Source: Mytilus edulis (taxonomy: Eukaryota). From it: 64,000 nt of DNA. Under the pieces are notes generated by a model that was given only the letters and a program-made list of their open reading frames with translations, ran no database searches and had not been told where the DNA came from. Numbering within the stretch: position 1 is the first letter of the stretch; every line of letters begins with the position of its first letter. The DNA is taken from positions 79,236,001 through 79,300,000 of the forward strand of contig NC_092349.1 in the NCBI RefSeq assembly GCF_963676685.1, given 5' to 3'. The position numbers were made by a program, and so were the translations under genes. Positions 12,501-53,400 of the stretch are shown here, one piece after another.

Positions 12501-12565
12501 AATTTGTTGTGGACTTTAGCGGTGTTGTGGACTTTAGAGGAATTGTGGACTTTAACGGTGCCACA
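9540..12565. mobile_element. Non-autonomous foldback-type DNA transposon with TGT...ACA ends, ~220-bp TIRs built of ccgYtaaagtccaca subrepeats, and a 6-bp TSD
   Basis: Left end tgtggcaccgttaaagtccac at 9540 and right end gtggactttaacggtgccaca at 12565. aggcat is duplicated at 9534-9539 and 12566-12571. No transposase ORF inside. Contains a family-1 repeat at ~11515-11693. Confidence 0.9.
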
Positions 12566-15418: not shown

Positions 15419-15463
15419 AAAACTGACGAGGAAAGGTAACACACGGCCAGCGAAAGCTCTTTT
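15419..15463 (+). ncRNA. Minimal type I hammerhead ribozyme motif (array copy 2)
   Basis: aaaa-CTGACGA-g gaaa ggt..gcc ag c-GAAA-gc-TC-tttt: conserved core and palindromic AGCT helix III that would need dimerisation. Predicted cleavage after 15459. Confidence 0.6.
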
Positions 15464-15470
15464 TTTGAGA

Positions 15471-15565
15471 GCCCAGGTGGTCGTGTTGTCTAGCGGGACG
15501 GCTGCAGTTCAGGCGATTTGGTGTCACGATATCACAGTAGCATGGGTTCGAATCCCGGCGAGGGA
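15471..15565 (+). other. tRNA-derived (Leu/Ser-like, long variable arm) Pol III head, not a functional tRNA
   Basis: A-box TGGTCGTGT(G/T)G and B-box GGTTCGAATCC, T-arm GGG/CCC, variable-arm hairpin ggtgtc-ac-gatatc. Acceptor and anticodon arms are defective. Other copies at 15222-15316(+), 15921-16015(+) and 14877-14971(-). Confidence 0.8.
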
Positions 15566-15869
15566 AGAACCAAAAATTTGCGAAAGCAAATTTACAGATC
15601 TAACATTGTTGGGTTGATGTTTAGACGAGTTGTATATACATTATGTACACAGCCATGTATCACCATCATTGATGGCGATCCGATGGATACATCTGTTGTA
15701 GAGTTGTCACTGACTCAGACGTATATATACGTACTTATAAATATAATTATTTTCTGTGACTGTATATTACATTAATTTGTAAGATCCTTTACTATGGATA
15801 ATTTAGCTGATCTGTAACAATAACATCTTCATGCCTTATATATCATGTACTGTAGTACGCCGCTAGATT

Positions 15870-15914
15870 AAAACTGACGAGGAAAGGTAACACACGACCA
15901 GCGAAAGCTCTTTT
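15870..15914 (+). ncRNA. Minimal type I hammerhead ribozyme motif (array copy 3)
   Basis: aaaaCTGACGAggaaaggtaacacacgaccagcGAAAgcTCtttt, with ggt/acc pairing in stem II. Predicted cleavage after 15910. Copy 1 (15170-15214) has the core mutated to CTGACGT. Confidence 0.6.
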
Positions 15915-16134
15915 TTGAGAGCCCAGGTGGTCGTGTGGTCTAGCGGGACGGCTGCAGTGCAGGCGATTTGGTGTCATGATATCACAGTAGCATGGGTTCG
16001 AATCCCGGCGAGGGAAGAACCAAAAATTTGCGAAAGCAAATTTACAGATTTAACATTGTTGGGTTGATGCTTAGACGAGTTGTATATATATATTTACATA
16101 AGGAAGCTATCATTTGATTTTTATGGGTTTATAT

Positions 16135-24516: not shown

Positions 24517-27500
24517 ATGGTTAAAGATCTTTGTTCGTTTATATTGTTACTTTCACTGATTGTCAGTAGTTTTACCGATGGATTAAGTACGACAGAACAA
24601 AATGCATGTCCTCGGTACATCAGGTCAGTAGACTTAAATCGTATCAAGATCGCACAATATGAAGATTCGTCGTTAATTAAATCATTTTAACCCATTTTAG
24701 GTCGAGCTTTTTTTAATGCTGAATTTTTGGCTCTGCTTTTACGTAGTGTTTTCGTCAATTCTTTACACTTCTCAGGAATTATTATTTCCCTCGGAGTTCA
24801 GTATTTTTGTTATTTTACACTTTTCTATGTCATTAAGTCAGGTCGGACATTTGTCTCATTGGCAATCATACCACATCTTATTCATGTGTATATTTTTGCT
24901 TTTAGTTCACTTGCATAATAAAATATATATCTTGATAATAAAGGACCGATTTAAATAAAGTTCACATTGTTGTGTACGTATTAAACATTTTATAAACACA
25001 TTTTCGTTTTACAATTTTTGTTAGTTTGCAGAATTGTAGAATGGGGAACATTTGAATGTTATTTTTATAAATGGAGTATGAACTCGTTAAAATTTGAATT
25101 CACGTAAAATTCAAGTCAATGAATATTTCTAACAAATCCATCAAACAAGCACGTGAAAAATGATACGTAGTAAATGTAAGACAAATATTTTGGATACATT
25201 CCATGAAAAAAAACGTGTATTAAAAAAGTAGGCGTACATGTACATTTTGGCTATCCGGAAATTACTTTTTCTATTCATTATTGTGTTTTAGAAAGAAAAG
25301 AAAGTGTACGGCAAAACCAATAAATCGTGCAGAGTTTCATGTTAACATGAACATTTGCTTTATAATTTTTAACTATATTTTTTTTCAGATTTTGTTCGGA
25401 TTACTTTTATTTAAATTCTCTGTGGGTATTGGTACTTTCATCTTTTTAAAATGTTTCATTTCAATCGTGGTTAAAATAAACATGTACATGTAGAATACCC
25501 GATCTTAATCAATATCATGATACAAGATGACATGCGCGTGTGTGTGATTTTTGTGGTACATATTAACATAGATTTGTAATTGCATGATATCTGAGCACAC
25601 TTCTGGTTTTAGTGCCGTATATTGTTAAATTGTTAGTTATGTGTAAGGCGTTTGTACATTGTTGTTTATCCGTTCAGTTTTTTTCGTTTGGTTATGATTT
25701 TTTCATCTGTCATTTTTTAGGTAATCTTTTAAATTATTATCTTCTACTTTAAAAAAAAAGAATATGTATATATTTTCATCAATTGATTCAGTCTCATCAT
25801 GATCTAGATGATAGTATTTTGATATTGCCCTGTAACATTATTTCATGCTTAAAAACGATATACTTTAATCTCTTCGTACGTAAATCCTAGGGAAATGTGA
25901 ATATTTTATTGTTGGGAATTTTCAACATTGATTTAGAATATTTCCAAATCTTGTTAATAGAAATGCTCTTATTATTTTTACATGTTTAGCCTTTGGAAAA
26001 TGTCAGTCATAAGTTTAGTCTTGAAAAGAACAGATTTTGAAATTTAGAATTTGTACGTTTACCCCTGTAAAATAATTTCTACTTGAGAAGAATTCGGATC
26101 CACAAATGACAAAATCCATGACACAGGCTAATTTTTAAAAGATACACATCAAACTAACGTTTTTCTCTATCGTTATATTTCACTATCAGTTTTATAATAA
26201 TTGGTGATATTAGAATGATTTTTTCATAATGTTTTAATTATATCTAAATATGTACAACGTAAGCACATGCTAAAATTACATAGTTTTATTATAAAACACA
26301 TTTTTTTCATTGCACATAGTCATTGATTTAAATTTCAAATGAAAACAACCAACCATTAGTTTAAATGAAACTGATCCCAGTAACATAGAAGGAAAAACAC
26401 CTTACAAATCTAAGCATATTGAAATGATGTTGCAATGGATAGAATGATGTATTACCTAGTCAGTAGTGTAGTCATTAAGTTTATACATACATTTAAATAT
26501 TTGAAGGCTACGCTTATGTGTTTCTCATATAAAAAGTAAAATAACAAAACTACCATCCTCCGAGGAAAATTCAAAACGGAAAGTCCATTTATCAAATGGC
26601 AAAATGAAATGATAAAACACATCAAACGAATGCACAACAATAGTCATATATCTGACTTGGTACAGGCATTCTCAAATGTAGAAAATAGTGAACATGGTTT
26701 TATAGCGTACAGTATAAATCTATTTTTTGTGTACCAAGAACTTCGAGTTCTAGAGCAGAAATGACTTATATTGATTTTGTTATTTTGTTCTGTTTAGACG
26801 AATGAAGCCAGATGGACAGTACCATAGAGTTTTGGAAATGACATGTTGTCCGGATTATATGGAAGTGGACAATAAGTGTATAGGTAATTAATGACCTTCT
26901 AGATAAAAAGAAGAATAGTCAATGCTTGCTTATAGACTCTATAGACCTTTTGAATACAGTTTGAAATATTGATATGTTGACATGTTGATTTGTTTTTATG
27001 TGTTATCCACTATGCCGTAATTTACGTACTGTAAACTTGCTTTTCTGTATCTATTTATATGATAGACGTGTACGTACGTTTCGTTTGTACAACTGCTTGA
27101 GATTAAAACGTAAAGGATTGAGATCTTAAAAGAAAAATGTAATCCCTTTACATATTGATGTGACTTTTCAAAGTTCTCAAATATTGTTAACTTCATATTA
27201 AAATGTGTTGTGTTTTTTTTATTTGGAGAAATTGAGAATACGATGAAATGATTCTAAATTAAATTCAAATTTTATCAATGTGATTTCTATCTTAATTGTA
27301 TGGAATGTTCATTACTACAAAAAAAAAATATGTAAACTGTTGCTCCAATTTGAAAACTAAATGAATTTCGTTATCAAAAAATAATATTCTTTTCAGCGTG
27401 CCCTGCGGGCCATTTTGGACAGAACTGTAGTGTACCATGTCTTGACGGTAAATATGGACAACAATGTAAATTGACATGTAATTGTACACGTGACCTATGC

Positions 27501-30500
27501 GACCCAAAGACTGGTTGTAAATGTAAAGCAGGTTATACTGGAGCACACTGTGATAAAGGTATGACAGGTTTTAATATAACCTTGATGTAACTACCCCTTT
27601 ACAATAATTGCAGTTGTTAGGACTTAGTACAATGTTGTGTCTGTTGTCTATGTCACGAACCATTTATGCAATGCATTCCGACCATTTCGAAAGATAGCGA
27701 AATATTTCCTTCATAATTGTATATTTAATTGAAAAAACAAAAATAAACAGCGTGTAATGATCTATATAAAAATTCAGGATCACTCCAACAGATTTAAATG
27801 ATTAAAACGTAAAATGCGTTGACCAGAAATGACTTTTTAAAGCCTACTTTAGCTCAACCTTTCTTATATTTAACTTATCAATTGTAAAAATATAAGTCTA
27901 CTTTGTCTCAATATAAAAAAAGAAGATGTGGTATGATTGCCAATGAGACAATTCTTTAACAAGAGACCAAATGACACAGAAATCATAGGTAACCGTACGA
28001 CCTTTAACAATGAGCAAAACCCATACCGCATAGTCAGCTATAAAATGCCCTGAAATGACAAAGGTAAAACAATTCAAACGAGAAAACGAACGGCCTAATT
28101 TACGAACAAAAAATGAACGAAAAACAAATATGTAACACATCAACAAACGTGAACCATTAGATTAAAGGCTCCTGGCTTTGGACAGACACATACATACAGA
28201 ATGTAGCGGGGTTTAACATGTTAGCAGGATCCCAACCCTATCCTAACCTGGGACAGTGGTGTAACAGTACAACCTCAGAACGAACCATACAAATCAGGTT
28301 AAAAAGGCATAACTCATCAGATGGATACATATGCCTCCCTTTCCTATATTTAACTTATCAATTGTAAAAACGTAAGTTATGTTGACTAAAGGACAACTCT
28401 ATTATAACTCTACTTATGGTCCAAAAGACGGACAACCAAACAAACTTTAATGTTAGTTCATAAAAACGCTGCATATATCTCTTACAGGAAAGCAGGAATA
28501 AAATTAATGAATCTGGAAGAATTCGGTCGTTTAGAATTTTAATCCATTCAAAATAATTATTCATATTCATTTATCTTGTACTTTGTTTGAAAAGGTAGAT
28601 AACTTAAATATACGATTTCCATAAGAATCTTAATTATTGAACTTCTTTTACTTATAGAGTGTCCAGATGGATATTACGGCATGGATTGTCAATCGGTTTG
28701 TAAATGTTCAGAACACTCTGACTGTGATCATGAGACTGGCCATTGTAGTTGTCACATAGGTTATGAAGGCAGATTTTGTCATGACAGTAAGTCCAGAGAA
28801 CATTCGATTTTATCCTTTTGTTGTTTGAAAAATATGACATTATTTTCTAGAAATCAAATGATATTTTAGTGTATATTTCGTGGAGAAACATAAATGACGT
28901 CACTGATACTTACCAATTTTTCTGTATTTTAGCTCAGATTGATTTCTCAGACTACTTATTTAATTTATTAACTCACAGATCGTTATACACAAATAAAGGT
29001 AAAATAAAATGACAAATTTCAATATCAGATAGAAAAATTGGCACAAAATCTAAACGTTTGTATAATATGCATTCTTGTAACAAGGTTTAATCTTCATACA
29101 CAAATAAAGGAAACATTTTAAGAGAAGTTTCAATATCGAATACAAAAATGGCACTTTATCTCTTGTGTTTGTATAATATGCAGTCGTAACTTTAATTTAG
29201 ATACATGGATTAATATACGGATATTAAAATCGTTTTAAAATCAATTTGAAATACCAAATAAACATTTGGCACTACATAGCCTGTCTCTGTATATAAGCAT
29301 GTTGTTCATTTCAGTTTGCCGAGATCAGTTTTACGGACAGGAGTGCTCCCGTAATTGTAGTTGTCCAAATCAGGTACCTTGTCATCACGTGACCGGTCAT
29401 TGCTTGTGTCCAAAGGGGTTCAAGGGAAACAACTGTGATGAAAGTAAGTGAACAAATTATAAGAGATGCGTCTATGAAGTGTATTGTTTGACCAATTGAG
29501 GTACCCTTGATGAATGATTTGTACTGAGACCAAAGGTATCATTAACTTAGTAGCAAGGTTGTATGTGCTTTTTACGCTTTAAATACTTGATGGGTAAATC
29601 TGTAAAATTATAGGGTAAATCTGTAATAGTATACAGACACTGTAAAGAAGTTTTCAAACGGAAACCAATACAAGTATGTAATTCTGCGCATATATTTTTG
29701 GGTCTGATTCATATACGTCAACGATTCAAGTAATACTGAAAATTCAAGGTTATTTTTATCATCAAAGATAAGTGGGATAAAATAGATTATATACGAAATA
29801 TGTTTGTACGATTGGATATCGGATTATTGAGAGAACAATACATTTTTGTCCGAGTTTTATTTTACAATTGATTTGTGTGTGATCAATTGAAAGGAAATGT
29901 TATCCGGGCATTTGTGTTATTTTTGTATTTCCTTGTTCAAATGATATTTATAAATAGAAACCGGGGTAACGCGACCACATTTTTGTATTTCATTTCACGA
30001 GGTTTAAAATGTTATTCCTTAAAATGCTCATTTGTTAACACACAGGGAAGTCTGTAGATAGTCCAATTTATGTCGATAAAACTCACGTCTGTGTTTTATA
30101 TTACTCAACATGATTCACCTATTGTCAATAACGAAGGTACGCCAATTATGGAAAGTTGATACAAAGCATTTGGAACAAGCATCTGGTATTTACCAACATC
30201 CACATTTATCTACATTACAATTAGATTTTAAAAATGAAATTAGTAGATGTTGTTGATAACAGACATAACATGCTCCTTTTATTTATTGACCACTCATATA
30301 TATTATGATGCTAAAAACAATACATTTTACTTAAATGAATGTACAAGAACATAATTATGTTTAATTAAATCTATGTACCAAAAAAACTTGTTTTTTAGGA
30401 TGTCCGGTTGGTACATTTGGCGGAGACTGTCTTGGTACATGTAATTGTATAGAAGGAACATGTGATCCAAAGGACGGACAATGCACGTGTAACCCGGGTT

Positions 30501-33500
30501 ATTCTGGTAGATTATGCAACGAAAGTAAGTCGGTCGTATTTAAAGCCATGCACCCAAACTCGTTTGCACATATTAACATGAATATTATGAATAACTACAG
30601 ACTAATATATATTTTACTCCTCAATGTTAAATTAATTTTGAGTTTCCCTAAAGAGACATTAATTGTCTAAATGCTGATCTGATGCATTAAAATTGGTACT
30701 GTTACTGTCATTAACACACTTATTTGATGTTGAATAATGTCATCCTTATACATCATAGGCAAATATGTTGACCGTTGTTCAGATCTCATGAATCCTTTTT
30801 ATTAAAAGTCATAAAAGAAAGTCCAGTTAGAATCGAATTACGCATAAATGAGATAACTCGACTTGAAAAGGAAAGCTTCTCCTGCTATGCATTATCACCC
30901 GCCATGTCCGTATAATAAGATCATGCAACACACTTGGTAAAAAAATGGCAGACAAGTCAAATAAAAATCAAGAGATATGATATGATTGCCAATGGGACAA
31001 CAATTAACAATAATGTTAGGTAATGAGAGTATTATTTAGATCCAGTTCTTCAAAGTGTAAGTAATATAAAAAGCTGGAAATCCAAAGGACAAAATCTGAT
31101 ATATGGAAAAAAAAACAAAAACAGCGATAAGGTGTTTAACAGTTTATTAAGCAGCTAATGCATAACATCATTACTCGTTCCAAAGGAATACGTGATTTAC
31201 GTAACTGAAACAAATACTATGATAAGTAAATAATAAAGTGTTTTCCCGGTATACAATATTTTAATAATTTTTACAGATTGTCCAGAAAATTCGTTTGGGA
31301 GTGGATGTAATTCCACCTGTACTTGTGATACTCACTCAAGATGTCATCCAGTTACTGGAGAATGTCTGTGTCAGCCTGGCTTCCACGGAAAGGATTGCAG
31401 CAAAAGTAATTCAATTTTAATCAAATATAACTTGCATATCGTCCATAATTGAACGGTGTATAAGGAGTTTCACTTAATGGAGGTTTCTCAACATCTTACG
31501 AACGAACGAAAAAAAAAGAGGGAGCATTCATTTATTCAATACTTTTGGACTATCGGTTGTTATCTTCTAACGTTTGCAATTTCGTTTACATAGAAAATAT
31601 ATACATTTTGGAATTTGTAAGACCATTTAGAGTCGTAGACATATTATATTGTCTTGATATCTATAATATATGATATACAATTTACGGTTTAATCTAAACA
31701 TTTGAAAATCTAATTGGTCAATAAATCATGGCGAAGAATATAAAATATTTAGAGCCAGGACAGTAATCGTACAAAATATTTTGATTAACATGACAACATC
31801 ATTTTGAAAATATATATATGAAAAAGGGTAAATATAGAATTTTGGGATGGTAGGGAATGGGAATCTTTTTGAATCTTATCAAGGATCAGATCAGTGGAAG
31901 AAGTCTTTCGCAAACATGAGGTAAACTAATCTAAGCGTGAACGCTTTTAGCTTTTAATTTGAAAAAAAACATTCCTCGGATCCAGGGTAACTTCGTTGCC
32001 CCAACTCTTAAATCCAAATGATCACTTCTTGACCTTAAATGATTATATCTGATTTATATTCTAGCTAAACTGATAAAGTCAAGAAGATGACTAAAGGGAA
32101 ACATTGAAATAAATATTAAAAAAAAAGAAAAAAGCAGTTAACACTTTAAAAATATGTTCTGTAATGTATTTAATTTTGTTTTGCTTTGTTTTGTTTTCAT
32201 GCGATTCTTATTTTCTTTTTTAGTATATAATTATATATTATTTTTTTTCATGGAGCTTTTATGGAATGCTGTATATGTTTTCTTCGTTTTTTGTTTTTTC
32301 TAATGTTTTTCTTTTTTACTTTGGGAATGGAATTTAAAGAAAATGGACCTTTTAAAAACTATCTAACTATCATTTTTGTTGGTGCTGTAGCACTCATATT
32401 TTCAACAAGAATACACAAAACTCTATAACTTTACGATTGATCGAGTGCACCTTTATATTTCTGTAGCTTATTCCCAAAAATAATTTTAGAGCAAGTTGGA
32501 CCGATTTGACCTAATGCACATCGAGACTTTTCTGTTGGGTGCTTTATTCTAGGAGATAGAATTTACCCAAACTCACCCTCCTTTATTCGTTCCATATTTA
32601 TAACGAATGTTTGGATAATAATATAGTGGCGTATCCAGAACTTTTCATAAGGGGTGGGGGGGGGGGGGGGGGTTGCTGACTGACAGAAGAGGGGGTCCTC
32701 TCTAGATTGCGAGTTTAATCTCCCCAAATAACACACGGCTAAAAATGATCTTAACTTAAATACAAATATCTTCCTTATTTTTGGCCCTGTCGTCAGAATT
32801 TCGTATGGTCATATTTTTCTAAAAAGCCGGTTTAATGACTAGTAGTATGTTGGACTATTAGTCCCCGAGGGTATCACCAGCCCAGTAGCCAGTACTTCGG
32901 TACTGGCATGAACATACGGATTTTTTGTGTTATTAAAATTTGCTGTTACAAAATATTAGAAATTATTATAAATTAAGGAATGTATCTCCCTCATGCAAAG
33001 CTCTGATTCCTTTCACGGATTTGGCTATACTTTTTGGACCTTTTGGATTATAGCTCTTCATCTTTTATATAAGCTTTGGATTTCAAATATTTTGGCCACG
33101 AGCATCACTGAAGAGACATGTATTGTCGAAATGCGCATCTGGTGCAAGAAAATTGGTACCGTTAATTTTATTACTACCACTGGGTCGATGCCTCTGCTGG
33201 TGGACTATTAGTCCCCGAGGGTATCACCAGCCCAGTAGCCAGTACTTCGGTACTGGCATGAACATACGGATTTTTTGTGTTATTAAAATTTGCTGTTACA
33301 AAATATTAGAAATTATTATAAATTAAGGAATGTATCTCCCTCATGCAAAGCTCTGATTCCTTTCACGGATTTGGCTATACTTTTTGGACCTTTTGGATTA
33401 TAGCTCTTCATCTTTTATATAAGCTTTGGATTTCAAATATTTTGGCCACGAGCATCACTGAAGAGACATGTATTGTCGAAATGCGCATCTGGTGCAAGAA

Positions 33501-36500
33501 AATTGGTACCGTTAATTTTATTGGAGAGTTTCAACCCCCCTATTTCAAAATGAAAAGGAGTAGGTCCGGTAAGGGCCGATTTTGGCCTCAAATTTCCAGT
33601 TCATCTGACGAAAGATTTTAGACACTTTTTAAACACCTAAGTGTCTTTTTCAGCTGATTCAATTAGTTTATGTGAAAGATTTAAACTGATTTACTCATTT
33701 AAAACGCTCCGATTCTAGCTTAAATATGAAAAATCTATCAAATATGCCAAAAAATGTCACTTTCAGATGTTTTTTGTCAAAAATGAAAGTGGCCGCATCC
33801 GTGTTCATCCTTAACCTTTATATATGTTATGTATTTTCATCAAATACAACTTACATTTCAATATAAAGAATGAACACAAATGCGGCCACTTTCATTTAAG
33901 ACGGAAACCGTCTAAAATTTAACTAAAATGCTAAAACTGTGAAGATTTCAGTAATTTAGCATGATTTAATGATGCTAGTACCCGATACATGTACATTGTT
34001 TTGTAAAAAACTGCCCATATTTATGTAGCAGAAGCATTCTAGTTTCAAATAAATAACTCAAAGTTTACATTTTAACAATTTTGTAAAACTGCTATATTTT
34101 GGGGCCAAAACGTGGTTTTAGTGAACCTTCTCCTTTGTGTATGTTTGCTTACCTTTAATTGAAATGTTTTTTTCTGAAGCTATTTTCATATGTCAAAATA
34201 TTATATTCAGTACTTTAATTTCTTCTAACTTATAAAATTTGCTAAGTTTTGGCTGTTTAAAATTGAGGTAATTTTAATTGCAAATTCAGACACAAACTTA
34301 TTATAATAATAAATTTAGTTTCTTCTTCATAGTAGAAATTAAAATTATCCCATAATATTTTAAGCATATAGTATTTCGTAAAACTAGTTACTGATAAAAG
34401 TTTCGGAACCTAAATATGAAAAAAGTCTTAAGAAATAAACGGAAAAAGAAAAGAGTTAACAACTTCAATTTCAATACGGAACTTTATCACTTTCCTTCCA
34501 TCACATTTTGTGTATTAGTCAATAATTAGCTCTCAACTGATATATGAAATTACTTCCTTTTTCACTATTATATATAATTTTTTTTCGAATAAAGTGCACT
34601 AATATATGGCCCATACTTTGTTTGTATATGTTTATATTATTCTATGTTTTTTGTTATAAAACATCAAATATACTTTGTTAGAAAAGTCTCATTGTAAAAA
34701 TCAAAACAATTGACGGATTGTTTCAGTGAATATTCCGTGATGTGTACGATATGGTCAAGTCCGTTGAAACTTGCTACTTCAAGTCCAAAGAAAAGACAAA
34801 AGTCGTTAAATTTTATGCAGTACTTAATATGCCAAAAAAACATCACCGACTGAAAGTTTGAATCAATATACCAGTATAGGGAAGTCAACCTTGTTCTGCA
34901 TTGTATCTGCAATGAATAAAAGATTGGATGAGGTGAACATAAAGGTGTTTCATGCGATAGCTGTAAATTTGAAGAACTGCTGGCAGTTTACCATCGTCCA
35001 TACTTCAAAAGTTACACTAGTAAACAAAATTGTTCCCCCTTTGAGAGCGAGGATGCTTCTAACCTGAAATTTAATGACGACAGACAATTATCGGACTGTT
35101 CAGTGTCCCTCAGTTTCGGGTGTTTGTACGCGTTATAGAATGCAGTCGTTCAACTGAAGCGCTTGATATTTTGTTGCAACAAAACATTTTAGAAAGATCG
35201 AAAACAACGCAAGTTTGAATCAGATAAGTGTATTAAGAATGTTTTATCCGTGGCAGAAAGCAATGGCGATGATTTTAAAGTTGAAACAGTTTCTCGTCCA
35301 TCTTTTAAACTTCAAGCACTCTATCATTCTGGTTGCATTACAAACTATTTGCTTAAAACGAAACAAACAAAATTCCAAACCCGTGGAAGCAGAAATCTCA
35401 GATCACGATACTGCTTTTACTTATTTTATTTTGGCTTTTGACAACGATTAAATGGTGAAGAAAAGCATTCCTTATGACTACATTACTTGATAAATATAGA
35501 TGTCGTCTTCCTACTGATTCTAATTTAAAATATTCTACTTGTAAAATGCCGTTTAAACTCATTGATAACTATAGAAACTCAGTTGTAATACAACTTCAAC
35601 AAGTTCAAGGCAAATCTAACATAATATTCAGTAGCAACATAACTATTGAAGATGTCAAATCAGCTGCTAGTCAATTGCAAACTCACCTCAAAATCTCAAT
35701 GTCAACAGTAATAGACACAAATAACGCACAGATATAAAGTATACTTAGAAAAGACATCGAAACTTAACTAATTTCCACAGAAGAATACCCAACTTCGGAT
35801 TAATTGCCTCTTTTTCTTCGATTCAGGCAATGCCTTCGTATTTATTGCAATTCATTTTATGGTTACTCGATGATACTGTATACAGCCAAGTCTATTCTCA
35901 TGAAATGGCACCAGAGAAATTGCGTAAATGCTTGGCAATTAATGAGTCAATCGTTTATGTGGCCGAAAAAAGTTTTACTCCTTTTCATTTAGGTTTGGCT
36001 TCACAAATGTACCATGAGTTTGGTTCAAAATACCTTGTTGAAACATTGAATGCCAATGGATTTTATTCTTCGTAAAGTGGAGTGCGACTCTATCTAATAA
36101 CCATGATCTGAAATTGAGCGAATTCAAGATATTGTGTACATCTCGTATAATGTTTCCCCAGCATCTTTGCAGACAAGCATATGGATGTCATCACACCTTC
36201 TTAAACAACCTATTAGATCACCTATTAGATTCGGTTAAATCTTAGATGGATTGATAGGATGGTTTGAAGCCGGTATTTTTTGTGCGACAAATGTCTTCGG
36301 ACTGCCTACAGTACTTGTATGTACTTTTAAAGGCAAATCTGTGTGCTCAAAAGAACGTGTTTGCTTTGAGCAGAACCTTTCATGTACAGACCTGTGTCAA
36401 TGAGTGAAATGTGTAGAAATATTATAAAAACGTTTATTGTGACGGTTGATGAAAATGACGATAAAGAGGTAGCGTTTGATTTTATATATAGCTTGTTGCA

Positions 36501-39500
36501 CTAATATACACTGTCTAAAGTTAGGAGAGGGTTGGTGCGCTTTTAAAAAAGTTAAACCCGCCACATTCTGTATGTGTCTGTCTTAGTCATGAGACTGTAA
36601 TGCAGTGGTTGTCGTTTGTTTCTATATACTATATTAGTTATTTTCTTATTTATTTTGTACATTAATCACGCCGTTAGATTTTTCGTTTGTATTACATTTT
36701 TCATTTTGGGAATTGAAGACTATGCGATATAGAGTTTACTCATTGTTGAAGTCCAACGGGACCTATAATTGTTAATTAATGTGTCAGTTGGTCTCTGTTG
36801 GAGAGTAGTCTCATTGACAATCATATTACATCTTCTTTGTTTATATGGAATACTTTTGAAGTTTGTGGTACGTTGCAAGGAAAAAAGGGGGGTACAGGTA
36901 CAAAATCGATCATGTAGTAGACATTAACCAGAGTAAGATACACAACAACAGATAAAACTATGGAAGAAGCAATAATTGTGAAAAAAAAAACGAAAGCAAC
37001 GAATAGTCTATAAAAAAAACCAGAAGTATCCGCAAATTCAATTTGAGGTCATATTTGACTCTACTGTTCTATTGCTTTGGTTCGATACCTCACCCAAAGT
37101 GATAGTTTAAAAAATAATTTTAAAGTATTATCCTTCATGACACCTGATTTTATACCTGAAATTGAAATTATTTATAAGGTTAAGGTGCTCTTAACATTTT
37201 ATGGGTTAAAAACAGAATTTTTGGAATTTTGTTTGTATAAAGGCGTTTTAGGATTTGTTTTGATAAAAAAATCTTTAATGATTAAGGTTTATGTATAATA
37301 ACAAACATTACTAAAGCCAAAAACAGTATCGTTTGTATTTAGGTAGAGTTTAGAAATAGAAAAAAAAAGAGTTAAAATTGAAACCCTTAAAAATTTTCAC
37401 AGATTTGTACAGATGACCTCTATTTAAAAAAAAATGTGACCATATCAAGTCCTGACGACAGGCATATTGTTATAGTACAAGGTTTTCTCTTTCCAAAGAT
37501 ATATTATATAGGTGTGTGTTCGGTGGGGAGATTAAATTCGAAAAAATATGCCTTCAGTCACCGCACTATTACAAACTGACAATGATCTTTTTAAATGGAT
37601 AAGGGAGATAAATCGAACGCGTATATTCGAAGTGTACACAAACGAAACTCAACGTAGTAATACGTAACATTCAACAACAGAAAATAAATTGGAACACCGA
37701 TTTTTAACCACAAAAATAAAATGCAAGGTTGCAAAAATATTATGCAATTGTTAACTGTTTTCTTTAAACACACTGCAATAACGGTAGACATTTATCTTGG
37801 ATTTTATTATAATAAAATTACTGCTCCTTAATGATACGTTCGAAGAGTTTTGTCCGTTCGCAAACCTCTATTATGTATTAATGATTACACTCATATTTCA
37901 GATTTAAAGTCACATTTATAAAACTACGCATTCAATCCAGCTTGTATGCAAATCTCTTTTCGAGTAAACAGTTCTTATTAAACATTGTTAAACCATTTAA
38001 AAGAATTAAAATATTATGTAAGAAAAAAACTGAATCCAAATTAATTTTGGCATCAATGATAATTTTAACTTATTTTCAGCATGCAATGTAGGATCATATG
38101 GGCCTGGCTGTATATACACATGTAAATGTTCCAGAACGTCAGTATGCAACACACAGACTGGTGAATGCGCGTGTGATAGAGGATGGACCGGGTTAAGTTG
38201 TGACCATAGTAAGCTATTATCATGAAGTCCCGAAACAAACTTATTGTTAGAGTAGTTCTCCCTTTTGGCAACGGTTTTGCTACACAATGGTGTTTTTGTA
38301 GTTTCTTGACCTTTTTTTGAATACATCGACTAAGTTACGGAATTTGTTTTGTTATTCAAAATTATTACATGTAGATTACCAATAAAGTAATTTGAAATAA
38401 GATTTAATAAAAAAACCTAATCAGCCTCATATAGTTATTATTTTGTCATTAGACTTTTCAAACTAGGATTTATACAGACGATATGACTGCAACAATACTA
38501 TTTTGCTCAGTAGTTTCACATTTGCTATGTATCGCAGGATGTTGAACTGTTAAGCTTCCAAAGGAATGATTAACATTATGTAATATAAGTGGATAATTTA
38601 GTTGTAGTATAACTTTTATTTAGAATGCTCCTCTGGTTACTATGGTGCTGGGTGTCTTCAACGCTGTGGCTGTTTAGAAAATCAACATTGTCAGCACGTG
38701 ACTGGTGACTGTCAATGTGAGGCAGGGAAACATGGCTTGCACTGTAATGAAAGTGAGTTTTGTTTTTATAATTATTTGAACGGACATTTGCAATTAACAA
38801 TTACTTATTGTTTTAATAACTTTACGGAAATTTTAAGTGCCTACAAACAAAGTTTAATTTTATATTTTCCTGTTTGTTAAATTGTTGTTGGCGACACATT
38901 GGGGTTGTTTTGATTTTCTCACAAAGGTTGACCGAATATTCATCAATATATATATATATATATATATATCAAAGTCAAATAATTTGTATTGATAACATGT
39001 AAATTCAAAAGACCATAGAAAGAACTTCATCAACGAATCAATAAAATAAAAAAAAATCTAACATAAAATGAAATGTGTGTTTATGCTTTCTTCACTTCAC
39101 TTTTATTCCTATTTTAGCTTGTGGTGCTGGTACTTATGGAATTGACTGTGCTCAAAGATGTAGCTGTCAACATTGCAGTTCAGTTGACAGAGTTTGTCAA
39201 CAAATGCATGCCAGTAATGATGGTATATTTCTAATTATATTATTAATAATAAAAGAATATGTGTGGTAAAATGCACTATCTATTAAAAGTCGTAACAAAA
39301 ATGCAGAGACCAAGTTAAATAATTGATAACATACACAATATTTTTAAGGTAATTTTATTACTTTGCAATATCATGTTCGGTACGATATATCAGTATAATG
39401 ACTTTATGATATGAAATAAAACGAAGAGAGTTAAATGTTGAACAAACAGATCTTTGACATTGCAAATGAGACAAATCTTCACAAAAGACCAAAATGACAC

Positions 39501-41101
39501 AAAAAAAAAACCGTTGTTGGGACTTGTTTTGTATAATTTTGTCAAATATTCACACGTTGTCACAAGTCAAAAACATCCTCAGTGTTTCCCAAAAGTTAAT
39601 CATATGTTTGTGTTATATAGAAACTCCTTGATATATACATTTTACGCATAACAATACAATGTCATATGTCCCATTTTTACGTACTTCTTCAACATCCGAT
39701 CTTTAAAACCTTTTGTACTCTGTGACTGCAAAAGAATGTGACAAAAATAACATTTGCAGGTGTGAGTGTCTTTGTATATAATAGATTTCTTGGAAATTAC
39801 ACGCCTCTGTTGCCATTGAGGGAAAGCTCATCGTGTTGACCGATGGACATCATCAATGTGCAATAATCAATCGATAAACCAATGGCCATGTCGCATTATC
39901 CCTTTTAATGCTTAATAATCCATCAAAATTAACGCATTTTTCGTATCACTTTAACGTATTACACTCATAATAGTGTAATGACAGAAATTTCTATTCGTGC
40001 AAGCAAAAAGACAAAAGGTTACAACCATAAGAACATTTCTTTTTAAACCGTCTTGTTGGAGGACTATCATAAGCATGACAAACTCGTGCAAGCAAAAAGA
40101 CAAAAGGTTACATCCATAGGAGATTTCCTTTTTAAAACCGTCTTGTTGGAGGACTAACATAAGCATGGAAAATTGCAAGAGCAAAACTTTTTTTTTAATT
40201 TTTGGCAACAGAAGTTTTATTACACAGTAAAATGTAGTTTTGTTAGTATTTGGTCTTTATACTTTTAATTTTCTTACTTTTAGATAAATCAACAGTAGGA
40301 ATATCTGTCGGTATAGTGGTGGGAATTCTGGTTTTGGTCGGATGCCTTTTACTTATTGTCGTTTTGAAACGCCGTAAACGTATGTCAGCTATACAGGACC
40401 TGCAGAAGATGAAGAGGGACGATTTTAGCAGTAATCATTACGAGGACATTGATACCTACGCTGAAATACCAGATTCAAAATTACTACCAAATTATCCTTA
40501 CAGCTATGCCGATTCAACTGATGTTAAACCGCCAATCAAAGAGAGACAACCGACAACAAAACGAACACGGAATATTTACCTGTCTGTCACTGATGCACAG
40601 AGATTCAGTAAACTCTCAGTTTCAAGTGGAGACATAAAGAGTAATGGTGATAGTTCGGACTATTTGAATCCATATACAGGATTAATAAGGGATGTCAAAT
40701 GTGCTAGTTATCAAGAAATCAACAAAATGACAAAAGAACGGAAATCTAGCAATGAGTCTGACTCTGGATATATAAAACCTGCATCAGGAACTGCAAAGAC
40801 AAACGATGGGAGTAACAGACAATGCAATGACTACATAGATGCAAAATCTTCTATAAGACTTAACAATGGCAGCGACCTCGACATGATCACCAAAAAAGAC
40901 AGAAACGAGAGCGAAAGCAGCATCCAGTCTGGATACTTAAAAATGAACTCGAGTCTGAAGAAGAAATCAGAAACTGATGCTGATTACAGCACAATGGACA
41001 TCGATGAAAATGGTAGTCTTAACAGTGTATTTCTTCCAAAGATTACAATAAGCAGTCAAAATGGTTCAACAGAGACCCTGAATATAAGAACCAATGAATG
41101 A
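24517..41101 (+). CDS. Receptor A: MEGF10/Draper/SCARF-like multiple-EGF type I membrane protein, 11 coding exons, 682 aa
   Basis: Exons: 24517-24623 (signal peptide MVKDLCSFILLLSLIVSSFTDG), 26798-26883 (EMI-like CCPDY), then EGF exons 27397-27558, 28658-28786, 29315-29443, 30399-30524, 31277-31405, 38080-38208, 38624-38752, 39118-39222 (all phase 1-1, CPxGxYGxxC type), and 40284-41101 (TM ISVGIVVGILVLVGCLLLIVVL, KRRKR, Tyr-rich tail). All borders are GT-AG and the joined frame is open (2049 nt). AATAAA at ~41175. Confidence 0.9.
27912..28325 (-). mobile_element. SINE-like repeat family 1, long copy in receptor A intron 3
   Basis: Reverse complement of 1468-1663 extended further 5'. Flanked by a ~40-bp direct repeat. 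Confidence 0.8.
33102..33145 (+). ncRNA. Type I hammerhead ribozyme
   Basis: Stem I gcatca/tggtgc; core CTGAAGA; stem II gaca-tgtat-tgtc; GAAA; palindromic stem III atgcgcat; AUC cleavage triplet (cut after 33139). Confidence 0.9.
33452..33495 (+). ncRNA. Type I hammerhead ribozyme (second copy)
   Basis: Identical to 33102-33145; cut after 33489. Confidence 0.9.
33556..34134. mobile_element. MITE nested in the Academ-like element
   Basis: Imperfect TIR aggagtaggtcc...ttttggcctcaaa versus tttggggccaaaa...gaaccttctcct. Internal inverted pair aaatgaaagtggccgcat / atgcggccactttcattt. Confidence 0.7.
36520..36845 (+). mobile_element. SINE-like repeat family 1, nested in the Academ-like element
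   Basis: Similarity to 1468-1663 and to the reverse complement of 27912-28325. Confidence 0.7.
39995..40168. repeat. ~89-bp tandem duplication just upstream of the receptor A TM exon
   Basis: tcgtgcaagcaaaaagacaaaaggttaca...ccgtcttgttggaggacta..cataagcatg occurs twice. Confidence 0.85.
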
Positions 41102-42865: not shown

Positions 42866-45169
42866 AATAAACAGCTACGCCATTAGCTAGAGCACATGAT
42901 ACGCCTTACGGTTTTCATTTTAACAGTTCAATAACTTCTCAATGTCATATCAGAAATTTATGAAAAAAGGGGGGTTATCTTAATAGATTTAAATCAGTCA
43001 ACAAAGTTAAATGAAAAATAGTCAAAACACTTTAAGGTTAGATTGTTTGCAAACTGGATAATCACCTTTTTATGAATAAATCCCATAACTCGGAAATGTG
43101 AAACATGATTTATAAAATTTATAAAAAGTGAAAGGGAGCTTAAAAAAATAGATATATAAACAATTCGCAAAAGTTTCAAAAGGACTGCTGAAAGCATTTT
43201 TGAGTTTTTCTCCAAATACTAGAAAATGTAAATGTGTGACAAAAGTCACATGTTAAAGACGGACAGATATAGTTATACCATAAGACTTCCTTTAATCAGG
43301 CGCATAAAAAGGGAGAGGAGTGTTCTTATCCTAAATTGTCTTTACTTCATGAATATTTTATAAAAAAAATATGTTTAAATATTAAGGAGATTTTGTTTTA
43401 TCATTAAATCAAATCAATCATAAAAATGTGAAAATAACAAATCAGTAATATTCATTTCTTATCAAAATTAATCTTCAAGATGACAACAATTATCAATCAT
43501 TTAAAAATTAAAAAAAAATGAAAATTGATAAAAATATTCATAACTTTATTTTATATTACTTCGTAAAATTTACGGAGGGATGAGTTCAACTTCACCATTT
43601 GAAACTCTTGGTTTAATAGCTTCCTTATACATGTTATAATAGATTGGAAACAGTGTCGGCATGTCAATAAAGACACTCTGCGCTGTCTGCTTACTGTAAA
43701 AATTGGTGTAAACATTATAAAATCTGATAAAAAATCTGTAGACAGTTATTCGAATATATTATGAATACTGTTGATATTCATATATTTCATTTTGAAAACA
43801 ATTCTGAAATTAACTATAGAGTCCATGAAACACCCATTTCTAAAATAATAATAATAATAATAAACTAGTAATCGCAAAACGGTTTGTGTTCGTATCGGCA
43901 GACAACACAGCCAATAATGTAGTGGTAGTGTGATGAAAGGAATGTATCAAAAATAAAATAATCCCTTCCTTTACATTCAAGTCCGTACGCTTTAAAGAGA
44001 GAGAGAGTTAATTGTAAACAAGCAAATTACTGCCTCTGCTCAAGCTTAAACCCTCTTCCAAACATTTGAAACATCTTCTACATCCCTTACATAAATGTAC
44101 GTCTATCAAAAAACAAAACATGCAAAAACAATATAAATATTTTCACAACCAAACGGCGCATCGAGATGTATGTTGAATAATTTGGCAGAAAATAATTTAT
44201 TACTGGACAAATAGATCCGGTATACTATATGAGATTGAATATACTCACATTCTGTTAACAGATAGCCAACATTATAAGAAAAGATAAAAAGGGAAAGGTT
44301 CAGCATTTTTTCGATTATAGTGAAAACAGCTAGGTATACTGAAAATCTTTCTGTGTAAAATTAATCAAAATGCTGAGATCTACCTTCTGTTTACATAAGG
44401 ACCGTTAAAATAGCTTAACCGAAATTATCAGTCGCGTCTCTGTACTTGTATTTAAGTTATGATCCTTTCATGAGGATTTTTTTTAAATTTTTGTTACAAT
44501 GTGTGCCTGTTACATATATTATTTTCATATCCAAAGTAAAAAGATAAAAACTATCATAGAAAGGTAAAACTATTGAAACTGAAGAAGAATTTTTTTTTTT
44601 TTTTTTTTATGTTGAGTTATCTCAGACGTTTGATTTTGTAACTTTTAATTGACATCGCCAAGTTTTGTGTTTTGTTTCTGTTGGTGCTTTTATACTGAAC
44701 GACTTTAGAAACGCAACACTCATTTTGTTGATTTTTTTTAACTAAATCTTGTTTGATTTTCTTACAACTACTTTCTATGCTTATCATACTTCTTTCTCCG
44801 TACAAAAAAATCAAAATCTGACTAACCTGTGGTTATTGAACATACCGAATTTTTTAAGTCGCACGAATTTCTTAAAGCGAAATTTTGGACCCATGAAAGA
44901 TTGTTTCGGTTGTTTTGCTTTGTGAAACAGTTTTTTCAATCCTTTGCCCCACTTAGACCAGTTTAAAAATGTTGCATCTCCATTTGACCAAGACTGAGAA
45001 ACAAAAAACTGACTTTCCCCTTAAGAATACTGCAAACATTAAAACATTAACGTGCTGCAACCATACTGTATGACTTCAGAAACTCGTCTTACTGTCCTTC
45101 CGACAACGATGCAAGTAGACAAGATTTGTTGCTGGCCATCAATGAACAGATAAACGTTTAGAGACAATG

Positions 45170-45300: not shown

Positions 45301-46666
45301 TTGCCAAAGAATCGACTGAAAGAAAACCTTAAAAGCCCTCAAGTTCCGACCACATAATTGCCAAAACCAATTAATGGGTTGAACAAATGCAAAACCAGAA
45401 GGTGCAAAAAAAAACATCAAAACATATCAGACAGACTTTGTTGACCTTTGTGACAATTATTTTGGCGTTTGTAACATGCAGTCATCGCTTTTGACGGGGA
45501 CACATTCATTCAAAAATAACACAAAAATAATCTAGTGTTGCGTTTCTAAAGCCGGTCAGTATATTAAGGGTGAGGAATATATAAAAAAAATTTGTGAACT
45601 CGCAAATTATTAATTTGGTAACGCTCTATGATTCTGCACGAGATATTTGCTACAGAAACTACTATTGAAGAACACAGAGTTTGAATAATCGTAAAATAAT
45701 ATTTAGCATACATTGTATTTTATAAATATAAAATCGTTAACCCTTATTACATCAAATATTAGAATTAATGTAGTCTAGAAAAATTCGCTCTTCAAATGAT
45801 CAATTATTAAAAAAAAAAACGAATTTAAATTCGTATATATAGCACAGGGCTACATCCACCAACCTATGCAGTGATCCACCTAGATTATTCAAGAAGAGAA
45901 AAAAATCAACAGCCCTCAAGCTATAAATGTATCGCAAATATATTTGAATAAATATAAATATCATAAACCAATTGAGATTGAAAAAAACATTGTTCCGTTT
46001 TGACAGTATTTTATAATGCTATATAATGACCAATACTTCCTTTTAGTATTTTTTTTTAAAGTAAAAGGTGTAATTCGAGTTCTAAAAAAACATGTATCAA
46101 GCGATCCGAGAGGAATTTTAAAGCAAGAATATGAACTCAAAGTTTTATCTATCGATGATTCTCATCTCAATGTGTGAAAAATACGTGAAAACTACTGTAA
46201 CAGGAAATCATACGTGTGGCAATTATAAATTGTAAGTTAAATATTTTAGTATTTTTCTATATTATTGTTCTGTCCATGCTGAATGATTATCGTTTTTGTG
46301 AAATCGTTATAAAGATATTGTCGAAAAAAGTTTTTTTTTTAATCTGAGGGACGATAGTGTTTTTTCTTAATCATGTTAAGCTCTTATATTCGTCCTAACG
46401 GTAATGCATATTTGGAAGTATGATCTTCGTACTTAACATACATGTAATTTGTCAGACGTTTTTCTGATATAGTTCCTTTTTTGAAAAAGAGATTATGCTT
46501 GTTAATATTTCATCCGTAAAACAAACTGTATTTTGTAAAGTTGTTCATACGGATTTTCTTAATATTGTGTTTCATTTTCTAAATAAATATAAATATAATA
46601 AGTTTAAAACTTTTTTACAAATTTATTAAATTCTTCCATTACTTCAGAAAAATGAAGATTATATAA

Positions 46667-46816
46667 AAGAGGGACGAAAGATACCAAAGAGACAGTCAAA
46701 CTCATAAATCTAAAATAAACTTACAACGCCATGGCTAAAAATGAAAAAGACAAACAGACAACAATAGTACACATGACACAACATAGAAAACTAAAGAATA
46801 AACAACACGAACCCCA
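46667..46816 (-). mobile_element. Fragment of a repeat related to the 3' end of the Penelope-like relic
   Basis: Ends aacacgaacccca, the reverse complement of the tgggttcgcgttg motif at ~14260. Similar diverged pieces at ~25595 and ~51790. Confidence 0.5.
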
Positions 46817-50419: not shown

Positions 50420-53400
50420 ATGGTTAAACATCGTTGTTCATTCAGTTTGTTACTTTTATTAATTGTTAGCGATTTGACATCTGGACTAAGTATTACAGAT
50501 GACCATACATGCTCTAAATATATACGGTCAGTACTTACATCAGTAAATGCTACTTAGATCTCATATTAATAATGACATTTGTTCTCTATTGCATATATAT
50601 TGACCAATTTTAGACAGCTTTTTATTGTTTATTGATGAATGTATGATACGTTTCATGTTTTCGAACGAAGCATCTACAGTTGCCTTTGAATTTGCATTCA
50701 CCGTTTTACGTTCATGATATAGATAAGCATATGTACTGACGGAATTAAAAAGAGGAACTCTAAATCAGCCCGCCTACATACAATTTAACTATTCATTTCT
50801 TGGAGTAACGTAATTATTCATCTTTTCCATTTCATGACCATGAAACTGTTGTTATGTGCACAGTATGATAGATTTGTAAAGAACATTTAAATCTTAATTG
50901 AGAAATCCTAACATTTGGTTGTTAATAAAAAGAATAAGGTAGCCTTTTTGTGCTTCTTTGTTCCATTTTTTTTAATAGTAATTGAGATGATAACATGATG
51001 TTGGCTGCAGTATTCTTTTATTTACTTATTGTGTCTGGTTTGTTCTTGTGTTCACATATCTTTGTCAATATAATGGACTTTGATGCGACTGAATTGTCAT
51101 ACAAGCTAGATGTTTAGCTAGTTATCAAACCAGGTTCAATCTACTATTTTCTACATAAGAAAATGCGTGAACCAAGTCAGGCAGTTCAGTAAATTTATTG
51201 TTTTACGTTATATAAAAAAACAAATTATTGAAAAATCATTAGTTCTTTTAGCACCTTACATATTTGAAGTTTGTAGAATAAATGTTGAAAAGCAGCTAAA
51301 CTAATTTGTTCATTTTTTGAACCGACAATTTAAAGCAATCATTGGTTACAATTGTTTGTTTGTATAAAACAAATATATTTTAACACCCCAGTTAAAACCT
51401 CTATTCAACATAACTTAGCCTAACGTTGTAAGACACATTCTCTAGTACGAACTCTGGGTTTATATACATTTCCTTTACTTACTCTATGGTCAAGGATATT
51501 TCTGCTAGTGTGTGTCAAAGATTGTTATAGGCTATGATTGTTCTTCTGGTATCTTTCGCTCCTATTCTATAGACAATGTCTTTGTATCATAACTACTTAA
51601 AAAAAAATATTTGTATTGCTTCGTGTACGGTAGATACATTTTATATATTGTGCCCCTTTCCCTTTTTGTTTTGTTATAAAGGAGTAGTAAGGGCGTATCA
51701 TATTTTTGTCGTGCTCATCACATATAAATTCTAATCATAATCTTGAGTAATAGTTTGTGTCTTCGAAAATATATTAGCGTATGGGCGTTGCATCTGAGTC
51801 TTATCCCGTGTTTTAATTGAGTTTATGTTGCCCAATATTTAGTTCAGTATGAGGCTTCTGTTGACTGTTGTTTGTCTGATTAACTCATCATTTATACCAG
51901 GATTGTAATTTGGTATTGCACCAGACACTCGTTTCATCTACAAAAACTCATCAGTGTCGTTTGAATATAAAAAAAAAGTTTAATAGGGAAAACAATTAAT
52001 TAAAAAAAGCATTGAAGACCACTAATTCCTAAACGTTGATGTTTTTGTTTTATTTTCTATTTGTATTTGCATCCTAGGTTTCTTTTATGAATTAAAGTAT
52101 ATATTTCATTTTCATGGATTAGTTGCTTTAGTCTTACTACTGAATTGTCATATAGCTCATCAACGGTTTCGGTACTTATACATCCTCGGATTTCAAATGT
52201 TTGGCTTTGAGTGTTCCTGATGAAGGTAAATCCAGAAAAGCGCTACGAACGCATTGATATAATTAAACGTTTTGTTTTCAATTTTTTACCGATAACAATC
52301 TATTTCGCCAATACATTTATACCATTATATAAATATTTAATTAGTTCTTCTCAAGTAATTTGGAGTGAATATAATTTAATAATTTTATCCTTCATACCTA
52401 TGATTTAGGGAAATAAGACATATAAAAAGAGGAGTTACCAAATTGGTGTAAAATATTTCATTTATTTATTCAAAATGTTGCAAATGTTTTTTTCTATTGA
52501 TATGATTTGCCTTCGATAAATGCTATTGACTCTGTAAGTCTTTGAATGTGAAAAAAGGATGAACGTCGCTATGAAGGGATCAAATTAAATAAAGGCAACA
52601 GTAGTATACCGCTGTTAGAAATTCATCAATCGATTGAGAAAAACACAAATCCGGGTTTCAAACTAGAACTGATGGAAACACATCAAATATAAGAGACACA
52701 ACAGAAACACAACATTAAAATTTAACACACACAGAAACGAACTAAAATATAACAATGGCCTTTTTCCTGACTTGGTACAGGATATTTTAATGACAAAAAT
52801 GGTGTGGGCATACCAAACCTTCCGCTTTTATGGCAATGTTAAATATAACATTAAATGACATCATTATATGATAGGACTACAATACGAATGAATGGGAGAA
52901 CATATAGGACAGAGAAGCACACGAATCATAGTAAACAAAAGCTAACAGGTTTAAAATTTTATACGCCAAACTCGCGCTTCGTCCACTCAAGACCAACAAG
53001 GCCAGTGAGACTCCGATGTTAAAGTTTGAATGCCAAAATTACCGATTTTAATAAAAATTTTGAGCTGAAAAAAAATTAACAAAAGAGCATTATTCAAAAC
53101 AGTTCATTTAGGGAGATTTGTTGTTTTGTTTTATGAACCTATAGATTTAATAAAACATTTTATTATGTTGTTTAACATTAATAAAACACTTAGTTTCAGA
53201 TAAGGGTGAGGGTTGTTAACATAAAAACGTTTAAACCTGCTGCAATTGTTTGCAACTGTCATAAGCCTGGAATCTGATGTTCAGAACTTGTCGTTTGATT
53301 ATGTGGTTCTCGTTTTTTGTTTCTTTTATAAAGATTAGATCGTTGATTTTCCCGTTTGAATGATTTTACACTAGATATTTTTGAGCCCTTTCTAGCTTGT

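Follow-up and report, generated by a model that had tools for sequence, protein, structure and literature searches.

How does a self-cleaving tandem repeat come to lie, in the sense orientation, within an intron of a receptor gene, and does its position matter to that gene? The question is raised by a stretch of 64,000 nt of the Mytilus edulis genome (assembly GCF_963676685.1, contig NC_092349.1, positions 79,236,001 to 79,300,000 of the forward strand; the whole of this stretch is termed the window), which holds a retrozyme with two hammerhead ribozymes at window positions 32851-33522 on the + strand. The element itself is of a known kind; the notable point is its likely link to Naiad elements, Penelope-like elements that lack a hammerhead. 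Our preferred explanation, to which we assign a probability of about 0.7, is that the copy was written by the reverse transcriptase (RT) and endonuclease of a Naiad, starting before a motif that retrozyme and Naiad have in common, and that its intronic position is probably incidental.

The insertion comprises a 5′-truncated unit, a full unit and a 33-nt tail. The repeat period is exactly 350 bp, the sequence at 32851-33172 recurring at 33201-33522 with zero differences. An earlier interpretation made from the letters alone (the sequence-only reading) had described an intact dimer. The units are indeed identical with a 350-nt period, but the first is 5′-truncated, beginning at unit position 62, and the total extent is 1.92 units, short of two complete ones. 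The tail (33490-33522, +) stops at the fixed 3′ end of the family, 4 nt short of the position where the CCAC of the motif would come. Each unit is built from a Naiad-like 5′ segment, an unrelated AT-rich spacer and a type I hammerhead, and has no coding capacity, containing just chance stop-to-stop frames of <100 aa. The copy is nested inside an older, repeated DNA-transposon-like element. In nine of nine other copies of this host transposon the site is empty, with the left flank joined directly to the right, and so the insertion has generated a 5-bp duplication of TTGGA with microhomology at both ends. The left copy of the duplication (32850-32854, +) has 4 nt in common with the 5′ end of the element, and the right copy (33521-33525, +) has its TT in common with the 3′ end.

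The two hammerheads occupy 33102-33145 and 33452-33495 (both +), with CTGAAGA...GAAA cores at 33108 and 33458. Helix I is GCAUCA/UGGUGC, helix II has four pairs (GACA/UGUC), and stem III, AUGCGCAU, has two pairs and is palindromic (33131-33138 in hammerhead 1). Self-cleavage of the unit is predicted from these sequences. The cuts would fall after 33139 and 33489, releasing a monomer of exactly 350 nt (33140-33489, +, 38% GC); this had been proposed, and is consistent with the cores and helices. Compared with ten copies of a sister family, 4 of 12 helix pairs are altered on both sides (two families, few events), and the stem III palindrome is retained. When folding energies are modelled without tertiary contacts, the stems III of the two units pair with each other with a probability of 0.55-0.72 at 37 °C and 0.91-0.99 at 15 °C, and the double hammerhead costs 6.9 kcal/mol as opposed to 17.8 kcal/mol for two single folds, so that the suggested double-hammerhead pairing is favoured by the model. 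The description of the ribozymes as canonical applies to the core. Beyond it Rfam has no match to this hammerhead either at the gathering score or at E≤5, while hammerheads of the sister family reach 33 bits against a cut-off of 34.

The exact 43-nt hammerhead occurs 2,901 times in the 1.37-Gb genome, evenly between the strands (0 occurrences of the reversed control), and the insertion contributes two of these. The locus is ordinary, a young member of a known mussel repeat family with thousands of copies. The family has a hammerhead in each unit and non-coding tandem units of <50% GC within the 170-400 bp expected of a metazoan non-LTR retrozyme. As is likewise expected, it is dispersed and expressed, lacks long terminal repeats (LTRs) and has target duplications that, where present, exceed 4 bp. 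The proposal of a young retrozyme of a kind known from mussels is supported.

The first 100 listed hammerheads fall in 68 loci; going in genome order, we analysed the initial 60. The 3′ end is fixed, lying at unit positions +32 to +41 in 58 of the 60 (the two exceptions are rearranged) and at +32 to +35 in 53. The 5′ ends are scattered, and the lengths of the loci form a continuous series from 75 to 3,190 bp. At least two hammerhead cores are present in 21 of the 60; scaled to the genome, we estimate ~2,000 loci, with several hundred having at least two hammerheads and able to yield a monomer. Target duplications are 5-9 bp in length. Duplications of at least 5 bp were found in 18 of 55 loci (two rearranged loci and three segmental duplicates were left out), compared with 4.0 (maximum 9) in 200 re-paired controls. 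In the unbiased sample, five of eight multi-unit arrays contain identical or near-identical units with variants private to the array, and the units of those five differ by at least 4.5 from every other array. In best-hit loci the 5′ ends seemed to cluster at the ribozyme cut; this was gone in the 60 genome-order loci, and was an artefact of ranking.

It might be argued that a single copy was inserted and then duplicated locally by slippage or unequal exchange, making the dimer uninformative on circles. Local duplication would also produce identical units, and a satellite route is preferred for long arrays in a preprint on Xenopus retrozymes (bioRxiv 10.64898/2026.07.22.740005). However, this requires an initial insertion longer than one unit, and the lengths of the loci form one continuous 5′-truncation series with a single fixed end. 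We regard this origin as extremely improbable.

Transcripts of the family were found in RNA run X24, from 6% of which the following figures are taken. The unit has a depth of ~520 with 79% of first mates on one strand, values that apply to the family because the reads are not assignable to a locus. The unit-to-unit joint (+33/+34) is crossed by 220 reads, and 180 reads continue past 33522 into many different flanks. Heterogeneous flanks after 33522 are also present in 71 and 91 contigs from two other runs.

The connection with Naiad lies in a 69-base motif at 33171-33239 (+), i.e. unit positions 32-100, comprising an outer stem (33179-33185/33230-33236), inner stems and an invariant CTGCTGGTGGA...TCCCCGAGG. 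A genome search for GIY-YIG proteins, in which 150 of 858 candidates were scored, yielded several young Penelope-like families. One, with an open reading frame (ORF) of 1053 aa, matches unit positions 55-87 at its start, scoring 54.2 compared with 20.7±3.1 for 1,000 shuffles (maximum 41.2). This family has the marks of a Naiad, i.e. an N-terminal GIY-YIG, a lengthened zinc-finger motif, CxC, GxKF and DKA, with no hammerhead core, and its start equals by eye those of Naiad_Mgal and Naiad_Mcor in the supplement of PMC8557442. The candidate helper loci L150 and L253 have an upstream CxnCxxC, CxC, GxKF/Y, DKA and a C-terminal RT, and CTGANGA is found in neither. Two more Naiad families were obtained by protein search, from which 15 loci were compared with the unit. 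Seven of seven loci with a 1000-aa ORF score 98-102, four with a 1007-aa ORF score 65.6-69.6, and 4 of the 15 give no match. The motif is identical to the start of the 1000-aa family at 60 of 69 bases without a gap, and the likeness extends to the Naiad start codon (80.6% over 98 nt); the remainder of the unit is unlike Naiad (score 36 versus 39.7±5.5). The 1000-aa family is young, with intact ORFs that are 97.4-99.9% alike among seven copies, and abundant, with 7,872 exact copies of the 33-mer from its 3′ end. It is 56% identical to the 1053-aa family.

The stems of the motif covary as RNA. Over nine sequences from four retrozyme and two Naiad families 98.6% of cells are paired and 7 of 23 pairs are altered on both sides, a value reached by none of 500 shuffles, with the caveat that the sequences are related and the structure was derived from one of them. 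Covariation with the 1053-aa family is weaker, with 3 of 11 pairs altered and 13 of 500 shuffles as high. Within the unit, folding structure is concentrated at positions 36-123 (z −4.3; 0 of 200 shuffles as low), whereas positions 124-301 are unstructured (z +1.5); the entire monomer has z −2.3. The claim of a strongly structured unit therefore holds for the former part but not for the latter. The hairpins that had been named are present, including the cUUCGg hairpin (33238-33257, +), which is followed by GCATGAAC, aligned with the Naiad start codon. Rfam contains no known RNA family or ribozyme that matches over the motif. A possible pseudoknot (GCUGGUG/CACCAGC) in the motif was rejected, as the pairing is lost by eye in the Naiad versions.

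The core pattern of the motif occurs 8,679 times in the genome (control 0), and is present in at least four retrozyme families, one of them with a different hammerhead. Motif-bearing retrozyme copies with ends in view stop just before the motif. In the supplement of PMC8557442, 11 of 12 hits to the core word are the motif, opening 11 named Naiad consensus sequences (CGi, Sglo, Olur, Tgra, Mcor, Mgal, Bpla, Skow-1, Pfla-1, Pfla-2 and Cmel). By eye, the stems in those 11 differ in sequence yet stay complementary. Apart from Mcor and Mgal, which are mussels, we take the names to stand for oysters, an ark clam, mussels and hemichordates. We note that the 1053-aa Naiad at L150:4402-4506 (−) has an extra 10-bp hairpin in the internal loop of the motif, and that Naiad-1_Skow in the same supplement has a similar insertion.

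The position at which copies end is also common to the two kinds of element. Naiad ends lie 2-6 nt before the CCAC of the motif in 28 of 30 genome-order loci, with a mode of 3, the other two being internal tandem joints. Retrozyme ends lie 2-5 nt before it in 53 of 60 loci, again with a mode of 3. In a second Naiad family 30 of 30 loci end between −2 and +5 of the aligned point, although these were ranked hits, biased against earlier ends. A non-autonomous Naiad derivative should have a terminal cis sequence in common with its helper and the same insertion end, and both were found. Because the ends fall just before CCAC, the motif lies in the template, just outside the part that is copied first. 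Such a position outside the motif is expected from internal initiation, as in the anole element (PMC11167929). The 69-base motif is thus likely to be the RT-binding and start signal of Naiad, as judged from sequence comparison. If the template were a linear monomer, copying from there would end after only 33 nt, and the long arrays therefore require circular RNA or a multimer that has escaped cleavage. A terminator of the RNA polymerase III type was rejected as the cause of the fixed end, since longer T runs occur inside the unit and the end of one sister family lacks four T.

A mechanism may be proposed as follows. Tandem RNA would cut itself, for which the double hammerhead is probably the most effective form, and the 350-nt monomer would be closed by a ligase of the host. 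For mussel retrozymes PMC7229834 reports units of 350-390 bp, about 5,000 hammerheads and abundant circles, together with cleavage of a cloned repeat at 0.1/min and its ligation. The Naiad protein may then bind the stem-loop and nick AT-rich DNA, which would anneal to the ...UUUAUU of the RNA via 1-3 bases of microhomology, so that copying would start 2-5 nt 5′ of the motif; a Penelope protein of the anole starts internally on its RNA (PMC11167929). The RT would circle the template and halt at random. Round-the-circle copying with a random stop would account for four features that are seen, namely a constant 3′ end, 5′ ends that vary, arrays with a non-integer number of identical units, and duplications of 5-9 bp. 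Binding of the motif by Naiad, the start position, rolling-circle copying and which of the three Naiad families helps are what we infer. In a wider form of this view, towards which we lean, mussel retrozymes would be chimeric Naiad parasites, in which a stem-loop conserved at Naiad starts from bivalves to hemichordates sets the point at which the Naiad RT, a relative of telomerase, begins, and a ribozyme-made circle replaces the long transcript of the helper.

The captured Naiad 5′ untranslated region (UTR) might instead act as an internal promoter and transcript start, with linear unit-length RNA copied from its 3′ end and arrays made by template jumps. The Naiad would still be the helper, but copying would not begin internally on a circle. 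Continuation of the match into the Naiad start codon is what an inherited 5′ UTR should show, and in Penelope-like elements promoters are retained close to this junction (PMC8557442, Chlamys-3). Yet the 220 RNA reads pass through the +33/+34 joint, and no pile-up of beginnings or ends is listed there, the joint lying at the edge of the mapped stretch. Moreover the stems covary as RNA, fast-cutting hammerheads would split a linear unit RNA, and identical units with array-private variants suit repeated copying of one molecule. We consider this use of the captured sequence unlikely.

Hammerhead-bearing Penelope elements have reportedly been the assumed candidates for a helper so far. Penelope/Neptune elements with hammerheads and intact ORFs occur in this genome, and an origin from hammerhead-bearing Penelope elements has been put forward in PMC7229834 and, for Xenopus, in preprint 2026.07.22.740005. 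However, the likeness of their hammerheads and flanks to the retrozyme is limited to the core, the loci examined contain no match to the motif or to the retrozyme 3′ end, and hammerhead-bearing RT+GIY-YIG loci score 22-27.5, i.e. at the level of shuffles. That the family was derived from and is moved by such an element is very improbable.

A number of points weigh against copying of a circle by a Naiad. Three of the eight unbiased arrays have unlike units (3.5-10 differences), as do most of eight arrays chosen for likeness to this unit (1.1-9 differences), and these fit an origin from a single circle only if they are old or had mixed templates. Homogeneous arrays would also result from local expansion at a later time. 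Reads that cross the joint cannot separate circles from tandem transcripts, and the X24 reads show no listed accumulation of RNA ends where the cut is predicted. The rate of 0.1/min in PMC7229834 possibly comes from another mussel family. Only 42 GIY-YIG loci were compared with the unit, and one other RT+GIY-YIG family scores 39, inside the ORF and below the shuffle maximum of 41.2. Finally, three Naiad families carry the motif, so that the helper family is not fixed.

We now consider the receptor. Splice sites and the frames of the exons suggest a gene model on the + strand. It opens with a signal-peptide exon (ATG near 24517) and a probable second exon, after which come eight EGF exons and a transmembrane (TM) exon. 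The insertion is within the intron 31406-38079, 1.7 kb past EGF exon 7 (31277-31405, +) and 4.6 kb ahead of EGF exon 8 (38080-38208, +). Further EGF exons lie at 38624 and 39118, and the TM and cytoplasmic exon (40284-41101, +) encodes an ITAM-like YxxL-x8-YxxI. The asserted sense orientation of the retrozyme with respect to the receptor pre-mRNA agrees with this gene. RNA contigs of run X19 contain spliced pieces of exons 8-11, from another haplotype. Splicing of exon 7 to exon 8 over the insertion was not seen in the mapped stretches, none of which includes the two exons together.

The sequence-only reading saw in the sense dimer a functional switch, coupling circle output to receptor expression or truncating the receptor. 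The orientation, the two intact cores and the favoured double fold are in keeping with this. With 4.6 kb to exon 8, a rate of 0.1/min and an assumed transit time of 2-5 min, a sketch suggests that 33-63% of transcripts could be cut; at a five times lower rate, with the same assumption on transit, 8-18% could be. Intronic ribozymes can reduce mRNA (PMC10919898, PMC11856399, the latter with an engineered fast ribozyme). However, according to PMC11856399 most natural ribozymes are too slow for use in vivo, and an intronic position is common, being that of 42-44% of the retrozyme copies in Xenopus (preprint 2026.07.22.740005). The copy sits in transposon debris, and the paralogous receptor gene (about 50.4-59.8 kb) has no such insertion. 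A tie between circle output and receptor expression was not borne out. The ~520-fold depth of family RNA in X24 accompanies zero reads over receptor exons 8-11 (in another animal, possibly without this allele), two hammerheads of 2,901 are from this locus, and about a third of the loci have two or more cores. Nor would a cut separate ectodomain from TM exons as had been suggested, since three EGF exons (38080, 38624 and 39118) still follow the insertion before the TM exon is reached. We consider a functional switch highly unlikely, and host coupling is unsupported.

Receptor transcription may cut some of the nascent RNA, at most reducing the output of this allele. Ribozyme-cut RNA ends carry no poly(A), and such ends would probably be degraded, giving no secreted isoform. 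We put the chance of a modest allele-specific loss of receptor pre-mRNA at about one in three. Neither an adaptive switch nor a secreted isoform is likely, because the cut ends would lack poly(A) and the output of hundreds of other loci would swamp any circles made here. The junction of the circle is identical to the genomic tandem junction, common to thousands of copies, and so divergent reverse-transcription PCR is uninformative.

Polymorphism of the insertion was sought in DNA runs. The same-haplotype control, run X1, spans neighbouring locus-specific joints without difference but has zero depth at 32828-32839, which leaves the insertion junction uncovered and the comparison without a working control. 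Runs X3, X5 and X6 have no depth at 32684-32695, and a hole in the contigs by itself proves nothing about polymorphism.

The element may be compared with several known systems. The non-LTR retrozymes of Mytilus galloprovincialis (PMC7229834; clones MN642551-76) are alike: their tandem unit is 350 bp long with <50% GC, stem III of the type I hammerhead has two pairs, copies number in the thousands and the RNA is abundant. The likeness is by description rather than by sequence of the clones. The passages of PMC7229834 consulted name no helper, fixed 3′ end or common motif, and count two hammerhead families where we find four unit families. The Naiad elements (PMC8557442) have the same 5′-terminal motif, end register, 5′ truncation and partial tandems, but whereas the retrozyme has a hammerhead and no ORF, they have no hammerhead. 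The best-matching 1000-aa family is absent among the hits in the supplement of PMC8557442, and the motif is not described in the passages of that paper. The Poseidon element PAc of the green anole (PMC11167929) is similar in having a fixed internal RT start near the junction of the pseudo-LTR (pLTR) and the ORF, and AT-rich (ATT) targets. It differs in belonging to another clade with a different domain order, two start sites, a tail and autonomy. Xenopus retrozymes (bioRxiv 10.64898/2026.07.22.740005) are also non-autonomous, Penelope-dependent tandem hammerhead repeats and are often intronic. They resemble hammerhead-bearing pLTRs, whereas the mussel unit shares only the 5′ signal of a hammerhead-free clade, its hammerhead being of other origin. 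Like the mussel copy, the CPEB3 ribozyme (PMC10919898) is a sense self-cleaving RNA in an intron that could compete with splicing. The CPEB3 ribozyme is however single and conserved across mammals (PMC8233481), whereas the mussel copy is young, multi-copy and mobile with no sign of conservation.

A 2020 review (PMC7761336) describes animal retrozyme repeats as without a conserved motif that points to a helper, and in its available passages PMC8557442 merely suggests that retrozymes may exploit Penelope-like elements. A link between retrozyme and Naiad was not found in the literature searched, outside which lay most subscription papers, Repbase entries and two key supplements. If correct, it would be the first time that a helper enzyme and recognition signal are named for an animal retrozyme, and would provide a 70-nt tag that turns any small RNA circle into a substrate for genomic insertion. 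The covarying stem-loop beside an identical insertion end points to a particular helper, to the site it would bind and to the place where it would start, all of which can be tested in vitro, and the link bears on template choice by Penelope-like reverse transcriptases. The setting in a receptor intron has little weight, as this is one of many such insertions.

The window contains further relatives of these elements. In the intron after exon 6, 30640-30713 (+) is a 78% match to the hammerhead and tail with the core destroyed, possibly an old relic. Four decayed retrozyme fragments of sister families lie at 51879-52038 (−), 52149-52286 (+), 52928-52993 (−) and 60483-60859 (−); three are in the first intron of the paralogue, and one of them, in the sense orientation, has a core disrupted at one base. 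Truncated pieces of the 1000-aa Naiad, 94-96% identical, are found at 46663-46816 (−), which stops at the fixed end of its family, and at 43562-43626 (−). The two remaining Naiad families are represented by pieces at 26530-26707, 52586-52994 and 57265-57486. Elsewhere in the genome, L141:188-238, L144:6263-6337 and L145:2100-2151 belong to a further repeat family with a near-identical hammerhead core, a different palindromic stem III (AUCCGGAU or AUCUAGAU) and a different tail.

The host DNA-transposon-like element extends over 32701-37568 (+), with a TAG terminus and a right inverted terminus at 37552-37568. Its left end has been replaced by a GC-rich fragment with a G run at 32625-32700, which has very high depth in DNA runs. 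Pfam searches on four frames of the host element gave nothing. Its TAG terminus may point to an Academ-like element. A second, independent insertion into the same element, ~580 bp with inverted ends (33557-34134, strand unassigned), lies 34 bp past the retrozyme.

The receptors with EGF repeats and ITAM-like tails form a tandem pair, at 24517-41101 and about 50420-59817 (+), the second lacking four EGF exons that are present at 28658-31405 of the first. At 15163-15638 and about 15855-16060 there are three copies of a 249-bp unit with tRNA-like A- and B-box words, beside a TA run. ARAGORN and Rfam at the gathering score found nothing in this unit, and a tRNA scan of the whole window gave none. 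Minisatellite arrays with 34- and 18/23/41-bp units lie at 7082-7244, 9545-9762 and 12351-12558, the last two in opposite orientations.

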